Source: a virus
Taxonomy: Duplodnaviria > Caudoviricetes
Direction: 5' to 3' (one strand)
Length of the DNA stretch: 64,000 nucleotides
IMG/VR virus record: IMGVR_UViG_3300028833_000071
The position numbers and the translations under genes were made by a program. Shown here piece after piece: positions 5,538 to 59,885 of this stretch. How positions within the stretch are numbered: the stretch's first letter is position 1; each line of letters opens with the position of its first letter. The notes under the pieces were generated by a model. That model was not told where the DNA came from, made no database searches, and saw only the letters and a list, made by a program, of their open reading frames with translations.

Positions 5538-5942
5538 ATGGAAGTTAAAAGATATAAAGTCAGATTAAATTCTGTTGAAAAAATAGAAGAATTGCTTCAA
5601 GAGATATACGACCAAGCTTGTAGGCAAATTAACGAAATACAAAACGAAATCAACAAACTCGTTAATTCAACCAATATGGGCGAAGATGGTTTTTCTATCG
5701 ATGCAAAGGCCACATATGCAAAATCAATACATGATTTCATCGGCGACAAACAAAAGGCTATTGCAGCCAAATTTGAAGTCGCCAAATTTATGGGTGAGAT
5801 TTTAAAGCATAACGGTGACGCAATGGCAACGGTTAATGATAAAAATTATAAGAAAAGGACTTCATTAAACCTTAATGAGATAAAAAATATGCTTGATGAA
5901 GACAATGATGGCTCAATAACATATGACCTTAAGAAAAATTAA
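5538..5942 (+). CDS. Hypothetical coiled-coil late protein
   Basis: 134-aa helical ORF after late motif. Confidence 0.7.
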   Translation: MEVKRYKVRLNSVEKIEELLQEIYDQACRQINEIQNEINKLVNSTNMGEDGFSIDAKATYAKSIHDFIGDKQKAIAAKFEVAKFMGEILKHNGDAMATVNDKNYKKRTSLNLNEIKNMLDEDNDGSITYDLKKN

Positions 5943-5947
5943 AAAAC

Positions 5948-8542
5948 ATGAATCAGACTGACAGGGTATTAAGCAACATAGGGGCAATAAGGACATTGCT
6001 TGAAAATTTTCCAATGGGATTATTCGAGAGAGACGGAAAAACTTATACTTCCGCCTTTGAATTTATTATGGATGTGCTTAAAGCGGTTGGTATAGACCCT
6101 AAGGAGTTGTTATCATATTTAATTGGTAAAATATATGGGTTTGAAGGTAAAATTGCTTATACAATTGATGGACTATATGAAAGTATAAGTAACGGGGACC
6201 TTAATGTTGACATGCAAAATCCATTTATTGAAGGCTTGGAATATTCAATAAAAGGTATTTTAATGGCTTTGTTTACAAGTATTTTTACTTGTTCGGCTTT
6301 ACCAATTTTAGATACTGAACTTTTTGATTATGACGCTCTTGAACCTCTTATGGGAGACGACGCAGAAAAAACAAAAAGAACTAATGATAATGATAAAAAT
6401 AAATTAAAAATTCCTGTTTCTTCAATTGATTTATTAGGGATGTTATCTATTTCGCCGTCAACAAAAGAGGGCTCTTTATATTATTTAACGGACGGAACTG
6501 ATAAATATTATCATAAGGAATATGTAACAGAATCAAAGATTGAAAGTGCACATACACAAGTGATTGCAGGTGAATCTTATTCAGCAATAACAAGTTTATA
6601 TGAAAAAGAATATTTGGTGAATTTTGAATATATGTTTCCAAATATGTATTTTGAAATTAATGAGCATGACATAAATACTGATACAATACAGTCAGCAGGA
6701 GCACCAATTGATTTAGAAATAAAAGTTAATTATTTAACTGGAGAGTGTGATAGTGAAGAAACAACAACTTTTAAAATAGATAAAGGCCAAGATTGTTCTG
6801 AAGGCCAAACCATACAATCTGTTATGATAAAAACGGGCTTAAGTGGTGAGGTTTATTATTATCCAACAGAAATTGTCAGTATAACGATTAATGGTAATAA
6901 ACAAGGGTGTGAAGTTGGAAATGAGGAAGACGGTACTAATTCATGGATATATTTAACAGCAACAAATGGCGAAGTGAATAATTGGGAAGAAAGTGGTGAA
7001 ACAATTGATTTGGAAATCTTTGGCGATTCAAGAGCGGATGAAAAAAAGATAGTTGTTAAAACAGCAGACCATACAGGCTCTTATGATTGTGAGATTGAAA
7101 CAACAGCATCATGGTATACATATAAACTTTTAGAAGACCCCAAAGAGGCCCAAGATGTAATTAGAAGTACTTATGTACCTGATAATGTATATGATACAGA
7201 CCCTGAATATATTGTGTGCTATGAAGGCGTAAATCCAAATCTTGTTTATCGTTCAAATGACATGAACGCATTTTTATGGTATTCATTAAATAAAGGTAGT
7301 GTGGTAAACCAACAAGAAGAAAACCATCTAATGTGGGATAGCCGTTTAACAGCTGCTAAAAAGGGGATTGTCCGTAACGGTGGCGACTGGAATATTTGGT
7401 ATTCTTCAAAATCAGAAGAAGGCGGAGAGTTTGAATATAACGAAAACCCTGAAACTGAAGTGTTATACCCAATTATACAGGTTGAACGTTATGATGAAGA
7501 TAATTTCTTATTGAGATTTCCTTCCCAAAGATATTACAAGCCTAAAAAGCGTAAGAAAATATATGATGGTACATATGAACATGGTAGTGATTTTGGACAA
7601 TACTTTAATTCAAGTATTTATCGTTTTGATTGGGAATATCTTAAGAATATACAAATACTTAATCCTAAATTATTGCTTGTAAGATTATTGGAATCGCTTA
7701 TAGGATTTGCTATGGATACACCTTCAAGTGTAAAATTTGATTTTAATAAAAAAAGGATAGAAGCAGTTATTGCTAAAGCCATTAAATCCATTATAACTGC
7801 CAATGATATGGAAATAGAGGATTGTTGGAAATCATTTTCAAATGAAGATTATAATGATTTATTGGAAGAAATGCTGTTAAGTAGATATCAAGCTACAAGA
7901 AGTGATGATGAATCGGTTAGAATTAGAGTACACGATGTTAATGATTATATAAACCAATTGGACCAAATAAATCAAAACACCTCTTCACAAGGTACGACAT
8001 CAATGATTACAAAAACAGTCACCAATGTGATGATGACAGAAGGTTCTGATGAAAAAACTGAATATAGTTTTGATTTTGGATTTGATTCAAATATGTACCA
8101 AAAACTTATATGGGCTATTGTTATGCCTATTGCTGAATCCTTGTTTACACCACAAGTAATGCTTTTAATGATGATTAATTTCCAAATGCTTGGTATTGTG
8201 AAGATTGACGAGGCTTTAGGTAACGATTTCACTAAAATTCTTAATTTAGTTATAAATAAAATTTTAGGCTTGATTAAATCAATTGTAATTTATATTAAAG
8301 ATAAGATATTACAGTTGTTACTTGATTTGTTTTATGAGAAAGTTATGCCAATGTTAACCGAGATGATGCTTATGCTTTATCTTGAAATGATTACCGATTG
8401 GCTTATTATATTGCTTAATTCAGTGAAATGCTTACCATTAATGATAGGTCTTGAAATTGAAAGAACTGGCGGCATTGACGAAGTTGATTATGCTGATATT
8501 GTAAACGAGCAGAATATACCTGAAAGCTCATCAGAGTGTTAA
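5948..8542 (+). CDS. Large putative virion (tail/baseplate-region) protein
   Basis: 864-aa ORF in late operon upstream of gp5-like gene; hydrophobic helical C-terminus. Confidence 0.55.
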   Translation: MNQTDRVLSNIGAIRTLLENFPMGLFERDGKTYTSAFEFIMDVLKAVGIDPKELLSYLIGKIYGFEGKIAYTIDGLYESISNGDLNVDMQNPFIEGLEYSIKGILMALFTSIFTCSALPILDTELFDYDALEPLMGDDAEKTKRTNDNDKNKLKIPVSSIDLLGMLSISPSTKEGSLYYLTDGTDKYYHKEYVTESKIESAHTQVIAGESYSAITSLYEKEYLVNFEYMFPNMYFEINEHDINTDTIQSAGAPIDLEIKVNYLTGECDSEETTTFKIDKGQDCSEGQTIQSVMIKTGLSGEVYYYPTEIVSITINGNKQGCEVGNEEDGTNSWIYLTATNGEVNNWEESGETIDLEIFGDSRADEKKIVVKTADHTGSYDCEIETTASWYTYKLLEDPKEAQDVIRSTYVPDNVYDTDPEYIVCYEGVNPNLVYRSNDMNAFLWYSLNKGSVVNQQEENHLMWDSRLTAAKKGIVRNGGDWNIWYSSKSEEGGEFEYNENPETEVLYPIIQVERYDEDNFLLRFPSQRYYKPKKRKKIYDGTYEHGSDFGQYFNSSIYRFDWEYLKNIQILNPKLLLVRLLESLIGFAMDTPSSVKFDFNKKRIEAVIAKAIKSIITANDMEIEDCWKSFSNEDYNDLLEEMLLSRYQATRSDDESVRIRVHDVNDYINQLDQINQNTSSQGTTSMITKTVTNVMMTEGSDEKTEYSFDFGFDSNMYQKLIWAIVMPIAESLFTPQVMLLMMINFQMLGIVKIDEALGNDFTKILNLVINKILGLIKSIVIYIKDKILQLLLDLFYEKVMPMLTEMMLMLYLEMITDWLIILLNSVKCLPLMIGLEIERTGGIDEVDYADIVNEQNIPESSSEC

Positions 8543-16297: not shown

Positions 16298-17011
16298 TTA
16301 TGTATTTAAAATGGGGTACATTTTTATTATTCGATTCATTATACTTTTAACTTTACCTTCATATCCTTTATCACTAGCGTATCTTTTACCATTCATATTT
16401 ACAAATGAACCTGGTTTTAATAAATCATCCAATGTTGTATCATCAGCCAAATAATCGTTTTTAATCAAATTAATAAAAGGCACAATACTTTCATCAGGCG
16501 AGGAATAAGTACAGACATTTTTACCACTGTCATATGACCCAACTGAAAAGACGCTATTAGTCGTTTTGGCTCTATTTGTTTGACCAAAGCAAGACTCTAA
16601 GTTTGCAATTGCCAATGTAAATGCAAGGTTGAAGTTGTTTTCTTCACAAGCGGTAACCAATGCTTCTGGAGTTAAGTTAGTTGTGGACCAATCATAACCC
16701 TGATTTTTCATAGCCCATTCCATGTAATCTTTACAGGCTTGTACTTTTTGGTCGTGTATTGTATCGGCTTCAGGCAGCATTTCTTCGACATATTCAATTA
16801 AATCGTCCTTTTCCATTTGACTTATTCCCATTTTATTAACAGCGCCAATGATAGTAGCGGCGGTAATGCCGATTAGAAGTGCTTTTTTAATTTTTTTCTT
16901 AATATCATCCAGATTAAGTGATTCATTTAGTTGTTTTGCTAAAATATATTCACCTTCTTCTGAAATAATGTTTTTTAATTGTCCTTCTGTTAATATAACC
17001 GTTTTCATCAC
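16298..17011 (-). CDS. Glucosaminidase/lysozyme-fold peptidoglycan hydrolase-like protein with leader
   Basis: LAIANLESCFG (catalytic Glu), NSVFSVG and YASDKGY resemble GH73; leader VILTEGQLKNIISEE. Confidence 0.6.
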   Translation of the reverse strand: MMKTVILTEGQLKNIISEEGEYILAKQLNESLNLDDIKKKIKKALLIGITAATIIGAVNKMGISQMEKDDLIEYVEEMLPEADTIHDQKVQACKDYMEWAMKNQGYDWSTTNLTPEALVTACEENNFNLAFTLAIANLESCFGQTNRAKTTNSVFSVGSYDSGKNVCTYSSPDESIVPFINLIKNDYLADDTTLDDLLKPGSFVNMNGKRYASDKGYEGKVKSIMNRIIKMYPILNT

Positions 17012-29377: not shown

Positions 29378-31330
29378 TTAACGCATTTCTTGTGGGTCCC
29401 ATTGAGTAAGTCCATCGACCTTCACAGCACCATAAAATCTGTTGTTAACACATTTCTTCGCATATCGTGTCATTATACCTTTTACAGGTGCAAAGTTACC
29501 TGGATTGTAGATGGTTGGGGTTAATTGCATTGGGATATAAGGTGCATAGATGTAACCTGTATCCAATAATGATTTACCCTTGTGACCGATTATGATTGAC
29601 CAAGCAGGTGAATATGGGTCTCTATAGACTTGGTATCTACCGTTGATTGAACCGGTTCTTTCAATACCCATGTTGTATTGGTCGCTTTCAGGATTTGCGT
29701 CTGAAACATGGAAGTATTCCAAGTTGTCGAACAATGCTGAAATTTCTGAAGATACAACGATGAAGTTTGCACCACCTCTAAGGGTTGATTTGTGAATTTG
29801 TGCTGATACTTGATTGATTTTGGTAATCAATTCTTGGTTCCAGTCTTTTTGTGTATAGTTGGTTGAGAAACCAGCTTGTCTTCTCCAACCATTGACATCC
29901 CAACGAGCTTGCCATGGAGCGGCTTTTCTAAGGTCTCTAAGGATTTCACGGTCGATTTCAGCAGCAATTTGTTCTGATAACAATGCTGTTAATTCGGCTT
30001 CAGCGTCAATGTTGTGGAATGCGCTAACGTCTTGGGCAAGTTCAGGTGACCAAGTAGCACGAAGTTTTCTTTCTTCAACAGAAACTGTTACATCGCTAAG
30101 TTTGAATGAAACTTCACCGATTTCAGTTTCAAGTTCTAATGAGTCATATTGTGACCATGCAACATTGAATAATGTTGAAGCGGTGTTTCCTGATTCAAGC
30201 ATTCCGGCAATTATTTCAGGGTCAACGCCAATATAACCGTCAAGTGTTTGTCCTTGTTTCTTTGAAGGTTTAGCAAGGTCAAGTTCGATTAAGATTGAAC
30301 CGTCAGCTTGGCAAGGATTGCCGTATTCAACAATACCGTGGCCATATCTTTGTGATACGATTCTGAAAGGAATACCTTCGTTTTCAACGAATGTAGCATA
30401 ATCATTGGCATCATCGGATTTAATGTCTTTGGTTGCAAAAACTTTTAATGAAGCTAAGAAAGCCTCGGTGTCCATTTCGTTTCCATCAGGACCTGTTAAT
30501 TTACCTGCGTTCCAGTTCGAGAAGCCTTTAACTTTAAGCATAAGATTTCTAACTGAACCGTCAGCATATTTTTGAATTGTATCTTCGGTAAGAGGTTCAA
30601 CTTCGAATCTGTTAAGGATAACAGGTGCTACATCACCAGAAACTCTGATACGGATTTTACCTTTTGAGTTGTCATACAAAAAGTCATTGTAGAACAAATC
30701 ATAAAGAGTTCTCTTATTGTATTTTGTTACATTTGGTGAAAGTTGTCTTATAATAGCACCTTCGCCGGCTTCTGCAACAACTTCATCATAAGTAGTACCG
30801 GAAGCGGGAGTCCAAGATTTACCGTCAGTAGTATATTCAAATGTCATTGCATTAACTACTTCATCAGGAAGATAGAAACGGTTGTATGTGCTGCCATTTC
30901 TTCTGTCTGTTCTTTCGTAGCCCATAAGACCTTTATGACGACCGACTGAACCATCTTTAATTTTGTCATTTTCGTCTAAATAATCCCATTCTCTTTCGCT
31001 TGTTACAGGAAGCATGAAGAACAATTTACCAACAGGTAAGTTCATTGCTTGAACTGAAACAATGTCGTTTGCAAGGAGTTTGCTGAAAACTCTTCTTACG
31101 ATAGGGAATACAACAGTTTCGAATGAACCGCTATTGTCTGAAGCAGTTGCCTCTGAAAGGAGGGCTTTAGCCTCGTTTTCATACAATGTAGCGACATTCT
31201 CTTTAACTATACCCTTAAGACCGTCAACCATACCAAGTGATGACCAACGGTTGGTGATTTCTTGTCTGATTCTTTTCTGCTCGTTGAGTTCTATATTACC
31301 AACTAAGCCAGAAGCTAAAAATTCTCTCAT
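29378..31330 (-). CDS. Major capsid protein (T4 gp23-like)
   Basis: PIVRRVF..LLANDIVSVQAM..P.G.LF, RKLRATWSPELAQD..AFH.IDAEAEL..LLSEQIAAEIDREI, GYIYAPYIP, P.KGIMTRYA. Confidence 0.97.
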   Translation of the reverse strand: MREFLASGLVGNIELNEQKRIRQEITNRWSSLGMVDGLKGIVKENVATLYENEAKALLSEATASDNSGSFETVVFPIVRRVFSKLLANDIVSVQAMNLPVGKLFFMLPVTSEREWDYLDENDKIKDGSVGRHKGLMGYERTDRRNGSTYNRFYLPDEVVNAMTFEYTTDGKSWTPASGTTYDEVVAEAGEGAIIRQLSPNVTKYNKRTLYDLFYNDFLYDNSKGKIRIRVSGDVAPVILNRFEVEPLTEDTIQKYADGSVRNLMLKVKGFSNWNAGKLTGPDGNEMDTEAFLASLKVFATKDIKSDDANDYATFVENEGIPFRIVSQRYGHGIVEYGNPCQADGSILIELDLAKPSKKQGQTLDGYIGVDPEIIAGMLESGNTASTLFNVAWSQYDSLELETEIGEVSFKLSDVTVSVEERKLRATWSPELAQDVSAFHNIDAEAELTALLSEQIAAEIDREILRDLRKAAPWQARWDVNGWRRQAGFSTNYTQKDWNQELITKINQVSAQIHKSTLRGGANFIVVSSEISALFDNLEYFHVSDANPESDQYNMGIERTGSINGRYQVYRDPYSPAWSIIIGHKGKSLLDTGYIYAPYIPMQLTPTIYNPGNFAPVKGIMTRYAKKCVNNRFYGAVKVDGLTQWDPQEMR

Positions 31331-31369: not shown

Positions 31370-31378
31370 ATAAATAGT
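31370..31378 (-). promoter_or_regulatory. Putative late promoter motif (ACTATTTAT in gene sense) for the capsid gene
   Basis: About 40 bp upstream of capsid ATG. Confidence 0.75.
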
Positions 31379-33101: not shown

Positions 33102-33193
33102 TTAATCAGCAATTTTAATTATTATTTTTAAAAATAAATAGTATATATTTTGAAAAAAGTTAAATAAAGATAATAATTTTATTGATTATTTCC

Positions 33194-33910
33194 TTATTTT
33201 ATTAGCCATTTATCAAAAATTTCGAGTTTTTCTATAATTTGGTTCTTATTTTCTTTTGAAGTGTTGTTTTCAACATATTGTTGCGGAATTTTATCTTCTG
33301 GTGTTATCCATGCATTGGGGGTCGATGGGTCTGATACTACATCCCAACAAACAATTTCATAGTCATCTGAAACATATAAAACACCCATTTTATTGGTTAC
33401 AGTTCCAAGACCTCTTGAAGAAACACCGACTTTAATACCTTGCAAAATGAGATTTGCCACTTGGTCGCCTTGACAAGTAATCATACCATATTTCCTAAAT
33501 CCTGGGCTTGTTATGATTTCAAGTTTTCCTACTAATGTATGACCTTCCCAATGTAATTCTATTATATTAATTGCAACTCTTGATAGGTCTATTACGGATT
33601 CGCTTGGGTGATTACATTCACCTATAGCTCTTTTTTCCACAATTTTTTCCATGTATTTTTGTACCTCACGTTTTAATACATCTTCAGGATATATTCTTCC
33701 GTTTGCGTTTTCTATACCGAATTTTTGGAATACGGCTGAAACAACTAACGGGTATGGGCAATGAAAATCATCATTAATTTTACCTGTACTTATATCTTCA
33801 AAAAGTTTTTTATTTTCTCCTATTTCAGGGGAAATATAGCCATCGTGTTCGATAAGTAAACCAGTACCTGTTTCACCTTTTTTAATTTCAACTAAAGTAT
33901 TTTTTTCCAT
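33194..33910 (-). CDS. Prohead protease (T4 gp21-like)
   Basis: NANGRIYP, AIGECNHP, VGVSSRGLG (catalytic Ser), WDVVSDPSTPNA. Confidence 0.93.
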   Translation of the reverse strand: MEKNTLVEIKKGETGTGLLIEHDGYISPEIGENKKLFEDISTGKINDDFHCPYPLVVSAVFQKFGIENANGRIYPEDVLKREVQKYMEKIVEKRAIGECNHPSESVIDLSRVAINIIELHWEGHTLVGKLEIITSPGFRKYGMITCQGDQVANLILQGIKVGVSSRGLGTVTNKMGVLYVSDDYEIVCWDVVSDPSTPNAWITPEDKIPQQYVENNTSKENKNQIIEKLEIFDKWLIK

Positions 33911-35723: not shown

Positions 35724-35796
35724 ATAAATAGTTTGATATTCAATAAAAAAAGCACATCTTTTAGATGTGCCTTGTGTTAAATGGTATATAATTGCC
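35724..35796 (-). mobile_element. IS1595-like right end (late motif, hairpin, TIR), no transposase
   Basis: Reverse complement of 35772-35796 is GGCAATTATATACCATTTAACACAA, 24/25 identical to 25554-25578; same promoter-hairpin-TIR order as the intact IS right end. Confidence 0.75.
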
Positions 35797-35814: not shown

Positions 35815-36444
35815 CTATTTTTCTAATGGTTTCCAATTTCTTTTTGCCATTTTTGCAAAATTTGCCCTTTTTCTTGTTAAAGGATTTTTTGAATGGGTTA
35901 ATTCTTCTGTTGATTTTCCTGTCCTTTTCTTTGTTGCATTGAATTTGCCTTTATTTTTGGGGTCAATTTCAATTTTGTTTTCTTCTTCATTGAAATTTTC
36001 TTGTAATTCCTTTTTTGTCATTTTATGACTTTCATGGATTTTTTTAAGACGGGCTTCTTCTATTTGGCGCTTTGAAAAACATTTATGTTCAGATATGCCA
36101 TCACCTGATACATCAATATCACCAGGAACATCAGGATTAACTTGTTGTTGTATGGCCTGTTGTATGTTCTCCCCTCTTCCAACATTTACATGTTGTGTCG
36201 GGGCTGAATCATTTGACCCGTTGGCATTTTGGTTTGAAATATGTAAATCAACATCACCGTATTTGCTTGCACTGTTAATTTCGGGTTGATTTTGTGTAAC
36301 AGCGTTTGTTATAGCAGGAATCGTGTTACCGGTTGTATTTATTTGGACGGTTGTGGTTGTTTCTTTTAAAACCTCATTCAACTGTTCTCTTGTCAATATA
36401 ATTCTTTTAATATTATTTTTTCCCATATCAAGTAGTTTTTCCAA
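35815..36444 (-). CDS. Putative internal head protein with leader and basic C-terminal motif
   Basis: IILTREQLNEVLKE leader; C-terminus IDPKNKGKF...RKRANFAKMAKRNWK; likely ATG at 36426. Confidence 0.65.
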   Translation of the reverse strand: MEKLLDMGKNNIKRIILTREQLNEVLKETTTTVQINTTGNTIPAITNAVTQNQPEINSASKYGDVDLHISNQNANGSNDSAPTQHVNVGRGENIQQAIQQQVNPDVPGDIDVSGDGISEHKCFSKRQIEEARLKKIHESHKMTKKELQENFNEEENKIEIDPKNKGKFNATKKRTGKSTEELTHSKNPLTRKRANFAKMAKRNWKPLEK

Positions 36445-36453
36445 TATTCTTTA

Positions 36454-37049
36454 TTAATTCATAAATTTAGGGTTGCTAAATGGTGAATTATTTGTTTTTG
36501 ATTGTTTTTTTGGTAATTCTTTTCTGTTATTTTTATTCATTAATTCATCTTGTGTTGGCCCGAAATTTTCTTGAATTTTATTTATTTGTTTTTTTGTAAA
36601 GATAACTTGTTCCATCATGGGTTGCTCTTCTCCACCATTTTGTTGAGTTTCGTCTCTGCTTAACATACTTTCAGCATATGACCTTACAGCCTCTTTATCT
36701 TTGTCTGATAGTTTGTTAATTATTGATAATGTGTCGTCACCACCACCCATATTGGGGTCTTCATCACCCATAGGGCCACCTATATTGGGGTCTTCGCCGC
36801 CCATTGGCCCACCTGCATTTGGGTCATTACCCATATCACCCATAGGGCCACCCATATTAGGGTCTTCACCGCCCATTGGCCCGCCTGCATTTGGGTCATT
36901 ATCCGTTGGCATATTCATATTAGGGTCTTGAGACAAAGAAGCATCATCTACTGACGGTTCTTGCATATTATTTGCCGTAGATGATGCTTTATTTAATTTC
37001 AAAAAGGTTTTTTCGCTTAATGAATTTTCATTCAGTCCACTTTTTTTTT
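36454..37049 (-). CDS. Gly/Pro/Met-repeat head protein, probably expressed as a -1 frameshift extension of 37032-38714
   Basis: Frame is open from the A9 run at 37041-37049 (KKSGLNENSLSEKTFLKLNK...) with no ATG until NNMQEP. Confidence 0.6.
36744..36927. repeat. Coding tandem repeat (DPN[AMI]GGPMG units, 72-bp period)
   Basis: 36769-36829 is nearly identical to 36841-36901. Confidence 0.85.
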
Positions 37050-38714
37050 ATTTGCACCTTCAATCGGTATACCTTTTTTTAATTGATACATAACATCTTT
37101 TGTGACATTATTAACCAATTCAGTAAATGGGTCACCATTGCCTATTTTGCTTCCAAAAGGCTCTTCGTTGTGGACACTTTCGTCATTCCAGTCTCTACCC
37201 CATTGATTTTGGTCTTCACCTGTTGTAGGTAATTCCATGGGTTTTTTTCTGTAACCGGGGTGTTTTCCGAAAACATGTAATTCATCCTCATTAAGAAATT
37301 GATTAACAACCGATTCAACAATACGATTCATTTTTGCCCTTTTTGATTCCATCATTTGTTGTGGTATTTCACCGCATTCTTCAATTTCGTCAAAGCCTTC
37401 TTCACCATCATTTTCGTCAAAATCATCCTCTTCAAAATCTTCTTCCTCGAAATTTTCATCTTCATTATTATCAAGTTGTGCTTTCAAAGTTTCTATTTCG
37501 GCTTTCAAAGAATCAATTTCACTTCTTAAATCTTCATCTTCTGTTTCATTATCCATTTCAAGGTCGAAATCAGCATTGATTGAATCTTCATCTTCGGTAT
37601 CGAAATCGTCATTATTTAAATCGAAATCTTCTTCAGTTTCATCTTCGTCATTAAAGGTTTCATCTTCGCCGTCAAATTCAGCATCGACAGTATCTTCTTC
37701 TGTTGAATCTAATTCATCAGTGTTGTCACCATCAATGGTTTCTTCCTCATCATCAATTGAGAAAGTATCTTCCTCTTCCTCGTTTATTGAATTGTTAAAT
37801 GGGTCATTGTTGTGGTCAGTATCGGCTTCACCAACGCCAGCTGCATTTGGTAAACCTTCGTCCCATTCATTTGTCTCTTCGTTTACTGTTTCTTGGTCAT
37901 CCATGTCCCAACCAATTTGCTCTGGGTTTCTACCTTTATTTATTCCCTCAGTTCCCCAGTTTCTTGTATTTGGCAATAGTGGAGCATCACCGATATCACC
38001 GGCTTCTTCATTGCAATTTCCTTGGCATTCACATGGATTTTTACCGCATTTTCCACAGCAAGCGCCTTCATTCATTCTTTCAGTAAATGGATTACCTGTT
38101 TTGTCAGCGTGTGGTTTGTTACCATTAAAGCCTTTAACTTTATCTTGGTCAACAACTTTTGCGTCAGTTCCATCATTGATTGTATTTCCGTTTTTCTTTG
38201 GCGTTTCGGGATTTTTGCCGTCATATTTAACAACATTATTTTTATTTGAAGCACCAATTTCGTTTGCTTCGTTCATAATCATTGATGCATTGGACATAAT
38301 TTGTCTTTGACGTGCAATTTCATCTTTCATATTTTTAGTACATTCAACCAAATACTCTTCTTTTCTAAATGGGTCTAAAGTTGAAATATTTACAGTGCCA
38401 TTGTGTGCTTCATTAATCGAGGCCATTTTAAGTTCGAAATTCTTCAAAGCATTGGCATAACTTGTATATTCATAGTCACGTTTATTGCAAAAACCACCAA
38501 GATAGTCATATGCTTCAGCAACCATTTCTTTGTCTTTTGGTGCTGATTTAATGTAATACTTGCTGCATTCTTTTATAATACCATAACTTTTACCATCGGC
38601 TGCAATTGCATGATGTTCCAAAGTGTGAGCTTTAATATCATTGCTTTCGTTTAACTCTTTACCATAAGTGTAAAGGCCTTTCATTCTAGCAATCGTCTCT
38701 TCAAAATTTGACAT
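37032..38714 (-). CDS. Acidic prohead core/internal protein
   Basis: 560 aa with a long D/E tract and many xNE sites; late motif at 38757-38765; ends on an A9 run (KKKVD*). Confidence 0.7.
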   Translation of the reverse strand: MSNFEETIARMKGLYTYGKELNESNDIKAHTLEHHAIAADGKSYGIIKECSKYYIKSAPKDKEMVAEAYDYLGGFCNKRDYEYTSYANALKNFELKMASINEAHNGTVNISTLDPFRKEEYLVECTKNMKDEIARQRQIMSNASMIMNEANEIGASNKNNVVKYDGKNPETPKKNGNTINDGTDAKVVDQDKVKGFNGNKPHADKTGNPFTERMNEGACCGKCGKNPCECQGNCNEEAGDIGDAPLLPNTRNWGTEGINKGRNPEQIGWDMDDQETVNEETNEWDEGLPNAAGVGEADTDHNNDPFNNSINEEEEDTFSIDDEEETIDGDNTDELDSTEEDTVDAEFDGEDETFNDEDETEEDFDLNNDDFDTEDEDSINADFDLEMDNETEDEDLRSEIDSLKAEIETLKAQLDNNEDENFEEEDFEEDDFDENDGEEGFDEIEECGEIPQQMMESKRAKMNRIVESVVNQFLNEDELHVFGKHPGYRKKPMELPTTGEDQNQWGRDWNDESVHNEEPFGSKIGNGDPFTELVNNVTKDVMYQLKKGIPIEGANKKKVD

Positions 38715-38781
38715 ATTATTTCTTCTTTTTACTTATTATTTTCTTTTTTTTTTCTTATAAATAGCATTAAAAATAAAAAAA

Positions 38782-40371
38782 TTAAGGTAAACTGTTTAAA
38801 TTATCATATGTTTTGGAATTTAATTGCCATAATTTATCCAAATATCCAAGTCTGCGCAATGATTTATAGATTATATTACCATTTGATATTTCAGATTTAC
38901 CTTTATTTAATCCGCTTTTTCTTTCATTTTTGATAACATCCCATAATTTATCTGCTTTATCGGCAATAATTTCAATTTTATGGTTATCGTTTTTATATCT
39001 ATTATATAAATCAATAAGTTCATCAATATTATCAATATATTTTGCAACTTTTGATTTAATTAAATGTTTGTTTACTTTTGATTTTGCTAATTTATCTCTT
39101 TTTGGCTCAGTAAGCCATTCGTTTTTATCCAACGAATAAACACCGCTTGAGGCATGTGCTTCATTTGTGTCTTGCACATAAACTTCAACTGGGAAACCAT
39201 ATATATTCAAATCTTTATGCTCTTCATTCCAAATATTTTTTAATGAATCAAAGTATTTTTTAACAAATTCCGTTTTTTCATCAACTTTGGAATAATCAAT
39301 CAAAACATGTAAATCAATGTCTGAATATTTTTTATGCCAATTATAATTAGCCAAAGAGCCTGTGATTATAACATCATCAGGTTCAACCCAGTCAACGCCC
39401 AAGAAATCAATAAAATCATCGGCAATATCCATGAGTTTCAATCTAATTCTTGAATCAAGCAAATTGTTTTTCCAAAATTTAGGATTAAGTTCATGTTTTA
39501 TATTAAATGAGGATAAATCAACATCCTCAGGGTCTGTTTCGTCTATTATATTTGTTTCTTTTATGGCCTGTTCATTTAGCGTAAATTTTACTGTGCCATA
39601 ATATTTACCACATTTTGAACATTTATAAACAGGCTCACCACAGATATAAGTTCCTATTTTTCCACCACAATCGCAATAATCGGGGACAATTTCACCTTCT
39701 TCATTTTCTATTTCTTTGTTTTTTGATTCTTGCAATACATCTTTGTCTTTTGAATTTTCGTATTCGGTCCATTTTCTGAAATAGATATTACCTTTAAGAT
39801 ATGCCTCTGCTTCAATTTTCTCAAGTTCTTTATTATCTTTAACATCATCTTCTGAAGTAAAATTAAGATTTATACCTTCCAAATTTTGCATGTGGTGAAT
39901 CATTTCATGGGCAAATGAGCGTAAAATATCTTTAATATGTCTGTCATTGCAGAATATGGTGACTGATTTTTCTTCGGGTGAATAAAAGCCTGTGCGTATA
40001 AATAATCCTTCTTGTTCAGACCAATCAAGATTTAAATCCGGATAAGGGAAAACATTAAGCCCATCTTCTTTCATAAAATTCTCAATTTCATGGCAGTATT
40101 TTCTAATATCTTTTTCACTGTCTTTGTTATTTTCATTAATATGATAATAGGGGTTTAAATCCATGGATTTTTCAGGACCAAGCATAAAAGTATCAGAATT
40201 ATCAGATTCAGTGTTTTCTTCCATAGCACCACAACCTGTTATAGCGTCCATTATTCCTGCATTCACTTTTTTATGAACTTGGTCTTGCGCTGCGGGTATT
40301 TTTTTTTCAGACAACCTTTCAAAATCTTTGATTTTACCTATTTGCTCTTCTGTTATATATATCGTTTTCAT
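38782..40371 (-). CDS. Multidomain protein: leader, HExxH peptidase, Zn ribbon, Pol-beta-superfamily nucleotidyltransferase
   Basis: MKTIYITEEQI leader, FAHEMIHH, CDCGG...CSKCG, ITGSLANYNW...SDIDLH (GS and DxD motifs). Confidence 0.75.
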   Translation of the reverse strand: MKTIYITEEQIGKIKDFERLSEKKIPAAQDQVHKKVNAGIMDAITGCGAMEENTESDNSDTFMLGPEKSMDLNPYYHINENNKDSEKDIRKYCHEIENFMKEDGLNVFPYPDLNLDWSEQEGLFIRTGFYSPEEKSVTIFCNDRHIKDILRSFAHEMIHHMQNLEGINLNFTSEDDVKDNKELEKIEAEAYLKGNIYFRKWTEYENSKDKDVLQESKNKEIENEEGEIVPDYCDCGGKIGTYICGEPVYKCSKCGKYYGTVKFTLNEQAIKETNIIDETDPEDVDLSSFNIKHELNPKFWKNNLLDSRIRLKLMDIADDFIDFLGVDWVEPDDVIITGSLANYNWHKKYSDIDLHVLIDYSKVDEKTEFVKKYFDSLKNIWNEEHKDLNIYGFPVEVYVQDTNEAHASSGVYSLDKNEWLTEPKRDKLAKSKVNKHLIKSKVAKYIDNIDELIDLYNRYKNDNHKIEIIADKADKLWDVIKNERKSGLNKGKSEISNGNIIYKSLRRLGYLDKLWQLNSKTYDNLNSLP

Positions 40372-44573: not shown

Positions 44574-44644
44574 ATAAATAGTCAAAAAAGCAAAAAGGTC
44601 AGTCTTCATCGGACTAAATTCATGCTATTGGGCACATAGTTTCC
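44574..44644 (-). mobile_element. Degenerate IS1595-like right end
   Basis: 44611-44644 matches 15521-15554 at 23/34 positions (mostly transitions); same promoter-hairpin-TIR order. Confidence 0.6.
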
Positions 44645-45237
44645 TTTATGTTTTTGCCTTCTTCTAATTTTTTCTTTTGAATTTCAATATATTCAGAAAA
44701 AGGCTTTCTTTGTTTATTTCCTCTATAAAGCCATTTTTTGAATAATCGTAATGAAACTCCTGTTATTGCTCTAAATCCTTTCCATCCTTTGCTATAGTTT
44801 GCAAGATATGCTTTTTTGGCTTCTTTTTTTGAGTTAAACCCAATCATGACCTTACTTTCATCGAATTCGTCTTCCTTGTTATTTTGGTCAATAACATATA
44901 CTTTATCGAAATCATCCGTATGTGGACCGATAAAAACATCAACGGCATCACCATCTTTGCCATTACCTGTCGTATTAGTGAAATAGCCATAATGGTTTTT
45001 CATAATTACAAAACCTTCTGTACCATCGTCATTTTTATATTTTCTTTTTGAGCCTTTTGGATTTTCGATTGAAATAGGCATACCTTTTACATAAAAATGG
45101 CCCATACGGTAATTTCCCGCTTTTTTTTGTGCTTCAGTGGGCGTAGTATTAACATTTTCACATTTCGCATTAATTTCTTTTGAGGAAATTTCGGAAATTA
45201 GATGTTTTATTTGATTTTCTGTTAATATGACTTTCAT
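44620..45237 (-). CDS. Inorganic pyrophosphatase-like (InPase, polyvalent-protein type) domain with leader
   Basis: PTEAQKKAGNY..GH, ISIENPKGS.R, HYGY, DGDAVDVFIGP, FDESKVMIGF, AYLANY..GW. Confidence 0.75.
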   Translation of the reverse strand: MKVILTENQIKHLISEISSKEINAKCENVNTTPTEAQKKAGNYRMGHFYVKGMPISIENPKGSKRKYKNDDGTEGFVIMKNHYGYFTNTTGNGKDGDAVDVFIGPHTDDFDKVYVIDQNNKEDEFDESKVMIGFNSKKEAKKAYLANYSKGWKGFRAITGVSLRLFKKWLYRGNKQRKPFSEYIEIQKKKLEEGKNIKETMCPIA

Positions 45238-45238
45238 G

Positions 45239-46249
45239 CTATTTCAAAAAGTTAATATCAAGTGTTCCATGTACACCTATTTTATTATTTAGCCAAGCGT
45301 TCATTACTTTTCCCAAGAATAAATCACGCTCGGTTTTATCCAGAAACATTTTTTGAAATGTATCAATAAGATAATCTTTTAAATCATCAGTATACATGTA
45401 TTTTAAAACATTATCACCGTCCATCATACTGACAATTTTAATCTTTTTCTTTTTGCCGCCTTCTAATGTGGTATAATCATATTTCCTAAAGTTATTGTCA
45501 AGATGTTTTTTAACTATCAAAACCTTTTCGGGGTCAATACAATATGGCTTGTTGACTTTTTTATCAACAGGCATTTGTGTTTTTTGAATATAATCTTCTC
45601 TTAAAAGTTTAATTAATTTTTGTTCTTGTTTTTCTGACAATATAATTTTTTTACTTTCGTTAACTTGTTGTTGTGGCGTTTGCCCTTGTTTTGCTTGTTG
45701 CAATTTTGTCAGCCTTTCTCTTAATTGTTGTAATTCAGCAAACATTTTTTGCGTTTTTTCTCCAAATTCTTTATCATTTAAAATATGTTCACCTTGATTG
45801 GTTTCATCATCTAAAATATCAGGTATTTCTTCACCATTTATTAAAACATCACTATCACTTTTATCATTCTTTTCCGATATTTTCCATCCGTCCTGATTTA
45901 TTCTAGCGGCTATTTGATTAAATTCTTTTCCATGTTCAGGTAATATATGTAATATCAAAACACAGTATTCATGTATCATTTCATGGAGTAAACTATTTTG
46001 GAATGACCATTCGGTCCTATAATAGCCTTTATTAAATGCTAATTCGCCTGAATCATTGGCCTTTATTATCTGTTTTCCTTTATATTGTGCAGTATTATTG
46101 CGATAAACGGCCCAATTTTCAGGTTGACAATTATAACTGAATTTTGGCGTTGGTAAACTTTCGTTAAAATATTTTTTGTTAAAATAATTGAAGTTATTTA
46201 CCATCCACTCTTTATCGGGCACCATTTTATTTTTATCGTATTCTTTCAT
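45239..46249 (-). CDS. SprT-like zinc metalloprotease-domain protein
   Basis: FN.KYF...LP.P, LLHEMIH, HGKEF; internal leader-like KIILSEKQ; late motif at 46268-46276. Confidence 0.75.
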   Translation of the reverse strand: MKEYDKNKMVPDKEWMVNNFNYFNKKYFNESLPTPKFSYNCQPENWAVYRNNTAQYKGKQIIKANDSGELAFNKGYYRTEWSFQNSLLHEMIHEYCVLILHILPEHGKEFNQIAARINQDGWKISEKNDKSDSDVLINGEEIPDILDDETNQGEHILNDKEFGEKTQKMFAELQQLRERLTKLQQAKQGQTPQQQVNESKKIILSEKQEQKLIKLLREDYIQKTQMPVDKKVNKPYCIDPEKVLIVKKHLDNNFRKYDYTTLEGGKKKKIKIVSMMDGDNVLKYMYTDDLKDYLIDTFQKMFLDKTERDLFLGKVMNAWLNNKIGVHGTLDINFLK

Positions 46250-58045: not shown

Positions 58046-58232
58046 GTAAAATATATTTTTACATAAATAGTTTTATTTTTCAAATTATTTGAAATTGTGG
58101 CATAGTTTTTGTATATTAGTATTTGTGTTATTGAAAAAAAAAAGAAAATATTTTTTAAAAATTATTTGTTTTTTTAAAATTTCGTTTGTATATTATTTTT
58201 GTTGTTTAATTATGAACTTAAAATTGAAACAT

Positions 58233-59885
58233 ATGGCAAACATGAACAATGGATTTATTAAGGCCAATACAATTGGCGCAGGTGCAAATGACGCACGTAC
58301 AGAGAATGGTGCAATTTCTTACGCAACAATAGGTACAGCATTGCTTGACCAATTTGGTAAGGCAGGTTCTTTCCGTGGAAGAGAACTCATGGATGTATGG
58401 GCTGACCAATCTAAGTTGTGGTCGGAGGACCCTGAAAACGCTTTGAAGTTCCCATTCTATCTTAGAATGATTACCCGCCAATCAAACATTTTGAACGGCA
58501 ATAAGACCGAAAAGGTCCAAAAGGGTCAAGGTAATCGTGATGAATCTTTCAAGAGATTGCTTTGGATTGCTAAGTACCATCCGGAAGAGTTCTATCTTAA
58601 CCTTTGGTTGCTTCCTATCGTAGGCTCATGGAAGGATTTGTGGACATTGCTTTCATTCGAAGGTGCTGATGAGTATCTGAAAGCCAATAAGTTCTTCGAG
58701 GTTATGGCTGAGGGTATTTCTGACCCTAACCACAAGGACCTTGTAAAGAAGTATTTGCCTCGTATCCGTTCAGACAAGAAATGTACCACTCCATGGGCTA
58801 AGTCTACTAATATGTTGGCTAAACTCTTTGCTAGAACAGCTGGTTGGTCTTATAAGGAATATCGTGAGTTTAAGGCTACTGGTATTGCACATAAGTTCCA
58901 AACCTATATTTGCAAGGGCCTTTATAGCAGCATTGATTGGAAGACTATTCCTGGTAAGGCTTTGCTTAACCTTGTTAGTGGAAACTTCTTGAAGGCACAT
59001 AACCTTGAAGATAGTTACATTGAATGGTTGAAGAAGCAACCTGTAGCTAAGTTTAATGGTTATGCTTATGAACTTGGCCGTAAACTTAAGGAGTGCAAAC
59101 TTAATCCTAGTTTGGCTACCAAGATTACAATTGACAAGCAATTTGATGGACTTATTCAGACTGCATCAAAGAATAATGGTGCAATACAAGGAAATGTCCT
59201 CTGTGCTCTTGATACATCAGGCTCCATGACCTCATTGGTTGATGCTAAAAACAACATTTCAGCATATGATGTGTGTGTTTCACTTGGTATCTACTTCTCA
59301 GAGTTGAATCAAGGTGCATTCCATAATGTAGTTGCAATGTTTGATAATACATCAAGATTGATGACTCTATCAGGTACATTTACTGATAAGTATACACAAA
59401 TTGCTCGTAGTTCTGTCGCTTGGGGGTCAACCGATTATATGTCATTAGTGAATTTAATTGTCAAAACAAGAAGAGAACATCCCGAAATTCCGGTTGAAGA
59501 CTACTGTAAGACCATTTGCGTAATCTCTGATATGCAATTCAATCCTTCAAATAGTTGGACTTACAGAAATAATAAACTTGCAGAGCAAACAAATTATGAG
59601 GCTACGATTAAAAAACTTCGTGAAGTATTCCCTGAAGAGTTTGTTAAAGATTTTAAAATTATTTGGTGGTATTGTTCCAATTCAAGAACAAGCGATTTTC
59701 CATCTACTATGGAAGACTCAGGCACTTACATGTTATCTGGCTTTGATGGTGCTATCGTAAGTTTTGTGCTCGGAGGGGATATACCAACAAAGGTAGATGA
59801 AAATGGTAATACAGTACAGCCTTCAATGGAAGATATTGTTAATGCAGCTCTCAATCAGGAAGTACTAAGTTTGGTTAAAAACTAA
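58233..59885 (+). CDS. TROVE/Ro-like helical domain plus vWA protein (DUF2828-type)
   Basis: TENGA, GQGNRD, GSWKDL, MIDAS-like ALDTSGSM, ISDMQF, LSGF; ATG 58233 (or 58212) preferred. Confidence 0.75.
   Translation: MANMNNGFIKANTIGAGANDARTENGAISYATIGTALLDQFGKAGSFRGRELMDVWADQSKLWSEDPENALKFPFYLRMITRQSNILNGNKTEKVQKGQGNRDESFKRLLWIAKYHPEEFYLNLWLLPIVGSWKDLWTLLSFEGADEYLKANKFFEVMAEGISDPNHKDLVKKYLPRIRSDKKCTTPWAKSTNMLAKLFARTAGWSYKEYREFKATGIAHKFQTYICKGLYSSIDWKTIPGKALLNLVSGNFLKAHNLEDSYIEWLKKQPVAKFNGYAYELGRKLKECKLNPSLATKITIDKQFDGLIQTASKNNGAIQGNVLCALDTSGSMTSLVDAKNNISAYDVCVSLGIYFSELNQGAFHNVVAMFDNTSRLMTLSGTFTDKYTQIARSSVAWGSTDYMSLVNLIVKTRREHPEIPVEDYCKTICVISDMQFNPSNSWTYRNNKLAEQTNYEATIKKLREVFPEEFVKDFKIIWWYCSNSRTSDFPSTMEDSGTYMLSGFDGAIVSFVLGGDIPTKVDENGNTVQPSMEDIVNAALNQEVLSLVKN

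Follow-up and report, generated by a model that had tools for sequence, protein, structure and literature searches.

That a run of A or T within a gene can be recoded to yield two isoforms is well known from dnaX, tssM, spa13 and insertion sequence (IS) elements, and frameshift-extended structural proteins of phages are equally well known. The dnaX gene of Thermus thermophilus gives rise to tau and gamma by transcriptional slippage on a nine-base run, on which it relies, and that of E. coli uses ribosomal −1 frameshifting at A_AAA_AAG (PMC5009743). Transcriptional frameshifting on poly-A/T has also been described for Citrobacter rodentium tssM and for Shigella spa13 and mxiE; the spa13 extension has 112 amino acids and makes up 25-30% of the product (PMC4256274; PMC5009743). 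Among phage structural proteins, T7 10A/10B, the major head protein of Lactobacillus phage A2, Listeria phage PSA and lambda G/GT are C-terminally extended by frameshifting (references in PMC5221750 and PMC5009743). Here we describe a candidate of this kind in a stretch of 64,000 nucleotides (referred to below as the window) from the virus record IMGVR_UViG_3300028833_000071 (Caudoviricetes). It consists of a run of nine A's (A9) at the 3′ end of an open reading frame (ORF) for an acidic, prohead-core-like protein of 560 amino acids, here called ORF1, and of a second reading frame, the extension, which is open behind the run in the −1 frame.

At the junction the minus strand reads GCA AAT AAA AAA AAA GTG GAC TGA. 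The initial annotation had taken this sequence as the end of the 560-residue ORF, with the A9 run at 37041-37049, a −1-frame stop at its start and a −1 frame open from there to position 36454, and each of these details held when the sequence was re-read (Table 1). Past the run, the −1 frame opens with KKSGLNENSLSEKTFLKLNK... and adds 195 residues after K558, which gives a predicted trans-frame protein of 753 amino acids. The first −1-frame ATG is codon 28 (MQEP), in keeping with the earlier remark that none lies near the 5′ end, and the sole start-type codon before it is a TTG at 37002, read as the L of TFLKL. Runs of at least nine A or T occur only six times in the whole window. We propose that most of the product would end two codons past the run, as the 560-residue form, and that in a minority the frame would move by −1 within the run, so that the longer form is made.

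The layout resembles that of dnaX in having a run of nine in coding sequence, stops nearby in the other frames and, as predicted here, two products in a fixed proportion with a common N-terminal part, and the two solutions found for dnaX mirror the choice of mechanism at the A9 junction. It differs in that the slip at dnaX yields the shorter product, whereas at ORF1 it would yield the longer one, and in that dnaX serves replication, whereas ORF1 is a putative phage head gene known from its sequence. With tssM and spa13 the locus would share slippage on an A/T run that leads to a functional, C-terminally extended isoform. Those are bacterial secretion genes, whereas ORF1 is a phage late gene of a large conserved family with a protease-type site after the run. 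In the phage examples, too, the shift takes place at the 3′ end of a late gene for structure or assembly, and the scarcer long isoform enters the assembly by means of the N-terminal part that both forms have in common. They are, however, ribosomal shifts on short heptamers aided by stimulators, and the genes concerned encode capsid, tail-tube or chaperone proteins of smaller phages. ORF1, in contrast, and its relatives have runs of A9 to A11, and it is a prohead-core-like gene of a T4-like huge phage whose 195-residue extension is apparently designed for removal.

Conservation of the run was assessed in 105 loci taken from IMG/VR and metagenome contigs, each anchored on the conserved C-terminal module of ORF1, which gave 78 distinct junctions. 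The peptide KKK lies near the C-terminus in all 120 listed ORF1 homologues (47-72% identity), followed by 0-2 residues in 119 of them and by 7 in P0003. At the nucleotide level, 70 of the 78 junctions have a pure A run (56 T-A9, 13 A10 and 1 A11). All 70 have the 0-frame stop 0-6 nucleotides past the run, and in contigs of sufficient length the −1 frame continues without a stop for 161-260 codons. The −1 stop abuts the run, as TAA in the 64 T-preceded junctions and as TGA in the G-A10 cases checked by hand. This layout persists to relatives with about 28-30% protein identity to ORF1, and a run of seven or eight was never seen among the 78 junctions where an extension follows. Outside the run, these genes encode lysine with AAA in 61% and with AAG in 39% of cases, and no run contains a G. 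That about 40 sequence clusters all keep the run free of G despite 39% AAG argues for selection on the nucleotides and not on the KKK peptide. Runs of A10 and A11 begin at codon position 1, 2 or 3, yet the shift needed is always −1. Since 70 of the 78 homologous junctions keep both the A9-A11 run and the open −1 frame, a chance layout is excluded. The A9 run is therefore very probably a genuine programmed recoding site, from which the locus would make isoforms of 560 and 753 amino acids; the comparison thus supports the −1 fusion with products of about 560 and 750 residues that the initial annotation had put forward. In one relative, at L008:4780-4800, a second A9 lies about 20 nucleotides into the extension (E-D-K-K-K-V), and several other relatives have A8 there, which indicates that long A runs are tolerated just downstream of the slip site.

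Inspection of the loci themselves revealed forms in which the two parts are fused in frame; a word-index search, which is weak evidence on this point, found no fused relatives of the extension, and a profile search with the extension gave no protein of at least 600 amino acids among the best 150 of 263 hits. In a sister lineage comprising L022, L024 and L025, the ORF1-like gene has no run at its end, and a terminator hairpin comes after it. A separate gene with its own ATG (L024:1462-2442, L025:5219-6109 and L022 at about 5720-6430) then carries a copy of the ORF1 C-terminal module (FGKHPGYRKKPM...WND...EPFG...) and the extension (...VKKIISEDVDEKTFLRLP...) in one frame, and at the equivalent point the run is A8, A6 or absent. 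Residues 9-81 of the L024 protein match residues 478-549 of P0001 (53% identity, E 7e-21), and the part that follows aligns with extensions (tblastn E 3e-22; hhalign probability 97.6%). In L069:32-2218 (Ga0352977_1011399) the junction reads T-A10-G, and ORF1 and extension form a single ORF of 728 amino acids. Either the genotype is truly A10 or the homopolymer was misassembled; the close relatives L067 and L071 have A9 and need the −1 shift. The in-frame fusions and L069 support a covalent fusion of the ORF1 module and the extension. Taken together with the stand-alone genes considered below, these exceptions indicate that the extension is meant to follow a carrier to which it is joined exactly at the run, and that long runs persist only in loci that have to switch frame.

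How the frame would be changed is suggested by the length of the run. We propose that the late transcription complex would stutter on the nine-T template and add one A, and that the resulting A10 mRNA would carry translation directly from ORF1 to the extension. In frame arithmetic, an mRNA longer by one A has the same effect as a −1 shift of the ribosome, so that both mechanisms fit; the heptamer mechanism needs only seven A's. Bacterial RNA polymerase slips efficiently in vivo on runs of nine A or T, and its RNA-DNA hybrid is 9-10 bp long (PMC5009743). The run is never shorter than nine in any phase, and the hairpin downstream of it in the window folds no better than shuffled sequence (−4.3 kcal/mol for the 60 nucleotides, z +0.28). 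For these two reasons we somewhat favour RNA polymerase slippage over ribosomal −1 frameshifting as the main route; slippage of the ribosome on A_AAA_AAA may play a part or, less probably, be the principal route. Of the hairpin six nucleotides past the run that the initial annotation had pointed out, the presence was verified; it is weak here and is no general stimulator, comparable structures being found in 10 of 40 clusters. The other 30 clusters, which include the window, have no downstream structure better than shuffles, and no consensus structure is conserved. No upstream hairpin is conserved across clusters either (mean z −0.2), which argues against a slippage stimulator of the IS type.

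What the long isoform may be for is suggested by the peptide that follows the run. The LNE and LSE sites that had been noted in the overlap are present (Table 1), and a site of the form [LIV]xE lies within the first 16 residues of 59 of the 61 complete extensions, compared with about 11% expected; the remaining two have MNE. ORF1 itself has conserved [ILV]NE sites at residues 21-23, 100-102, 277-279, 310-312 and 474-476, and in the family alignment the N and E of the first four sites do not vary (22-23, 101-102, 278-279 and 311-312), nor does E476. The gp21 protease of T4 cleaves core and internal proteins after L/I-X-E (PMC9026906). The match of the ORF1 sites to this motif is the basis for reading them as protease-type sites, and the junction [LIV]xE, together with a head module that holds an S77 protease and a gp23-like capsid gene, favours loading and release. 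In the proposed sequence of events, ORF1 would be a prohead-core protein cut by the gp21-like protease, and its C-terminal module or a helix would bring the protein into the prohead core. The slip would attach the extension to a fixed minority of the molecules, which would carry it into the prohead at a sub-stoichiometric ratio, and the protease would free it at the [LIV]xE after the junction, so that the freed extension would begin KTFLKL.... The conserved site after the junction suggests that the extension is loaded into the prohead on a carrier and then cut off. For this whole explanation, from recoding through the favoured slippage to loading and release, we put the probability at roughly 0.6. 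The wider idea that, in a large group of uncultured T4-like giant phages of the rumen, poly-A slippage acts as a device for stoichiometry and loading of the prohead interior, by which a cargo or accessory module with no targeting helix of its own is attached to the core protein, and that recoding, gene fusion and tagging are interchangeable ways to load a head, is offered tentatively.

The core proteins of T4 that are processed by gp21 (internal proteins (IPs), Alt, gp22, gp67 and gp68) offer a close likeness for such a pathway, with an S77 head module, sites of the L/I-X-E type and cargo that is targeted and then released. The present proteins, however, have no sequence homology to the T4 set, and the targeting element would be supplied by recoding from the preceding gene, whereas in T4 the capsid targeting peptide forms the N-terminal part of the same reading frame (PMC9026906). 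A likeness to retroviral Gag-Pol may be drawn in logic only, the proteins being unrelated, the phage having DNA and the extension holding no enzymatic domain. There, a −1 shift at the end of an abundant assembly protein adds a minor component that is freed afterwards by the protease of the virion.

Two rival explanations would do without recoding at the run. Under the view that ORF1 and the extension are separate genes, the extension would initiate at the codon-28 ATG, at the TTG at 37002 or by reinitiation, and the run would be incidental. Gene callers do give nearly all 263 extension-family clusters as proteins of 100-220 amino acids that start at an internal Met, a clade comprising L096, L100 and L104 has an ATG that overlaps the ORF1 stop (ATGA), and some lineages carry stand-alone extension-like genes. 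However, L102 of the same clade lacks that ATG, and 53 of the 61 complete extensions have no ATG, GTG or TTG in their first 12 codons, so that independent initiation, which the initial annotation had raised as the contrary outcome, is not what the homologues indicate. The first ATG stands anywhere from codon 3 to codon 54 and is preceded by a Shine-Dalgarno-like sequence in 8 of the 61 only; in L003, Ala replaces the Met of the window. The best-conserved part of the N-terminal half, the junction peptide [LIV][STN]E[KR]K[VT][IL]K[IL], lies upstream of any start codon in those 53, and in more distant members it begins right after the two Lys of the run. In the stretch from the run to the first ATG, pairwise differences number 13908, 9997 and 17305 at codon positions 1, 2 and 3, and 45% of single-nucleotide codon differences are synonymous; the excess at position 3 and the synonymous share mark this stretch as coding in the −1 frame. 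Selection on the nucleotides of the run, and natural in-frame fusions of these two parts with an identical point of joining, also speak against separate genes, which we regard as very improbable. Judged by these patterns, the −1 frame is very probably translated from the run and not from an internal start. Slightly less probable still is an artefact, decay or DNA variation, be it a true A10 that makes one gene for 753 residues, an assembly error, a frameshift mutation, or a mixture of A9 and A10 by replication slippage. The single ORF of L069 fits this view, and homopolymers are error-prone and mutable. Against it, the same −1 shift is needed in 70 distinct junctions from many separate metagenome and viral contig records, A10 and A11 members in other phases still need it, and a broken gene would be unlikely to keep a close stop and an intact −1 frame down to 28-30% identity. 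The DNA and RNA records over the window are assembled contigs, from which rare variants are dropped. Contig X6 from an RNA library (1906 nucleotides, spanning 36856-38753) is the only record that properly bridges the run; it has A9 and no difference from the window, and it places ORF1 and the start of the extension co-linearly in one RNA-library contig. No run-length variants are listed in the DNA or RNA contigs, in which minority forms are suppressed, and contig ends near the run (X5 and X7 at 37026, X8 at 37053) are uninterpretable.

The third rival keeps the recoding site and assigns it purely to the ribosome: pairs of tRNA-Lys would slip on A_AAA_AAA, hairpins would help in some clades, and the mRNA would be uniformly A9. 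Several points weigh against our preferred reading, and those on mechanism speak for this rival. Both the window and every one of the 70 A-run junctions have the heptamer A_AAA_AAA in phase, with the 0-frame stop close by, and this is compatible with a ribosomal −1 shift. A significant hairpin (z < −2) lies 4-16 nucleotides past the run in 10 of 40 clusters, the closest relatives of the window among them, compared with 1-2 of 40 in three control windows. Stronger versions of 6-9 bp occur in the close relatives L028, L042 and L003; the stems vary from clade to clade, their pairing apparently preserved by the choice of synonymous codons. Because RNA structure 3′ of the run cannot act on the polymerase that is transcribing it, these hairpins point to a ribosomal component in the clades concerned. 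Many precedents exist for ribosomal shifts at the 3′ ends of phage structural genes (PMC5221750). The RNA-library contig has A9, and no A10 form of the RNA is listed among the assembled contigs. An in-frame A9 (40299-40307, minus strand) also lies near the N-terminus of a 529-residue ORF at 38782-40371, where efficient slippage would be wasteful; such runs are evidently tolerated inside genes here. As to the proposed function, ORF1 has no homology to T4 gp22, gp67, gp68, IPs or Alt detectable with Pfam, PHROG, PDB or tblastn, and for protease cleavage and head location the evidence is motif and synteny. Stand-alone extension-like genes with their own start occur in L080-L084, P0127, P0180 and P0190 (also P0158), so that covalent linkage to ORF1 is not universally required; for the P0127 and P0180 forms, the viral-contig scans gave no match. 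The N-termini of the stand-alone forms consist of an amphipathic helix, then LSE and KKVIKI. Stand-alone and small-gene forms thus put a helix or the ORF1 module ahead of the same site, which argues for a carrier. A purely ribosomal mechanism has to contend with a run that always has at least nine A's where seven suffice, the two extra A's being invariant despite 39% AAG among Lys codons, with the differing phase of the run in A10 and A11 members, and with the 30 clusters that have no better-than-shuffle structure. We consider it possible but doubtful, and polymerase slippage remains our preferred reading.

Table 1. Features of the recoded locus and its surroundings in the window (nucleotide positions; E, expectation value; pLDDT, predicted local distance difference test score; AF2, AlphaFold2).
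Feature	Position	Strand	Evidence or remark
gp23-like major capsid protein	29378..31330	−	PDB gp23 sequence match, E ~1e-25
T4 gp21-like prohead protease (Peptidase_S77, PF03420)	33194..33910	−	Pfam E 1.2e-28, PHROG 207 E 1.4e-43
209-residue leader-bearing gene, next after extension	35815..36444	−	starts 9 nucleotides past extension stop
−1-frame extension	36454..37047	−	197 codons + stop (stop at 36456..36454)
VIFTKKQINKIQE motif in extension	36568..36606	−	extension alignment and regular-expression scan
Conserved helix-turn-helix block DDTLSIINKLSDKDKEAVRSYAESML...	36640..36738	−	AF2 helices 104-111 and 115-136, pLDDT ~85
Pro/Gly/Met/Asp low-complexity repeats (DPNxGGPMG units)	36736..36927	−	predicted disordered; breaks short-read contigs
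Junction peptide L-N-E-N-S-L-S-E, two [LIV]xE sites, then basic KTFLKL	37012..37035	−	LNE 37035..37027, LSE 37020..37012
Weak 5-bp hairpin TGAAT-GAAA-ATTCA	37021..37034	−	begins 6 nucleotides past run, overlaps 0-frame stop
0-frame stop TGA of ORF1	37034..37032	−	
A9 run, candidate slip site	37041..37049	−	0-frame AAA AAA AAA, T immediately before
−1-frame TAA (T and first two A's of run)	37048..37050	−	shuts −1 frame directly upstream
ORF1, acidic prohead-core-like 0-frame product	37032..38714	−	560 residues, ends ...EGANKKKVD; mostly disordered/helical
GCTATTTAT, one-mismatch copy of ACTATTTAT	38757..38765	−	~45 nucleotides upstream of ORF1 ATG

The extension is a conserved protein in the 61 complete relatives and has no Pfam or PHROG match; its AF2 model is mostly disordered (pLDDT 57). 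It also holds the motif PMMEsVIFTKKQLxKINE and a C-terminal SPFNxPKF. A motif of the VIFTKKQINKIQE type, found with the regular expression [VI]I[LF]T..Q[LI]..[IL].E, forms the N-terminal leader of three unrelated ORFs (16298-17011, 44620-45243 and 35815-36450, all on the minus strand). The AF2 model of ORF1 is likewise largely disordered (pLDDT 44). Its family counts 654 relatives from metagenomes, the longest of their contigs reaching about 400 kb. ORF1 gave no Pfam, PHROG or PDB-sequence match, and its profile found in the PDB a chance-level IF1 only. Searches of 50,697 deposited phage genomes with the locus by blastn and with ORF1 by tblastn gave no match, and the family is therefore known from metagenomes only. 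A Cys-rich insert, CCGKCGKNPCECQGNC, lies at about 38010-38070 (ORF1 residues about 217-235), in a variable region where the alignment has no consensus.

The G+C content of the window is 31.5%, and the DNA occurs in rumen-type gut metagenomes of sheep, goat and bovine origin as well as in metatranscriptome libraries from sheep. On the minus strand the window has a head module of the T4 type, with genes for the capsid protein, a protein of 573 amino acids, the protease, proteins of 609 and 209 amino acids, the extension and ORF1. The 573-residue gene occupies the place held by gp22 in T4, and the gp21-like protease is the presumed processing enzyme. A late-type 9-mer, ACTATTTAT, has 20 copies in the window compared with 1.8 expected; those checked sit upstream of genes (e.g. 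35724-35732, 33134-33142 and 31370-31378), and we take the 9-mer as a candidate for a late-promoter element. No copy lies on the same strand between 38765 and 35732, hence none between ORF1 and the extension, as had been claimed. With GCTATTTAT upstream of ORF1 and no further copy until 35732, ORF1, the extension and the 209-residue gene look like one late unit, of which GCTATTTAT is probably the promoter.

The start and promoter region of ORF1 is a sequence common to many genes or phages in these samples: positions 38716-38800 have a depth of 130-680, compared with about 10, in both the DNA and the RNA contig sets, and numerous short-sided joints lead from there to about 36422. Those that connect about 36422 with 38716 or 38733 reflect this repeated gene-start region of very high depth and not a deletion. 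Among the other long runs, the A9 of the 529-residue ORF encodes E-K-K-I right after the leader (...ERLSE followed by KKIP), the same LSE-KK context as at the junction, and a slip there would truncate the product. A run of A10 at 58134-58143 lies near the listed TTG start of a 598-residue ORF (58089-59885); the first 40 codons of this ORF look non-coding, and its real start is probably downstream of the listed TTG.

The finding leaves the known mechanisms of recoding unchanged. In the literature searched we found no description of this recoded head-gene family, and what is new is an undescribed family of prohead-core-like genes in uncultured T4-like giant phages, the breadth of its conservation, a site of protease type at the junction, and the fact that recoded, fused and stand-alone architectures exist alongside one another. 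Gene callers miss the event, and the 753-residue head protein predicted here is consequently absent from the annotations of widespread rumen and gut phages of 150-400 kb. Since recoded, in-frame-fused and stand-alone versions of one module coexist, the family amounts to a natural experiment, which lets one ask why an isoform ratio would be set by slippage and whether cargo released by a protease is loaded in this way.

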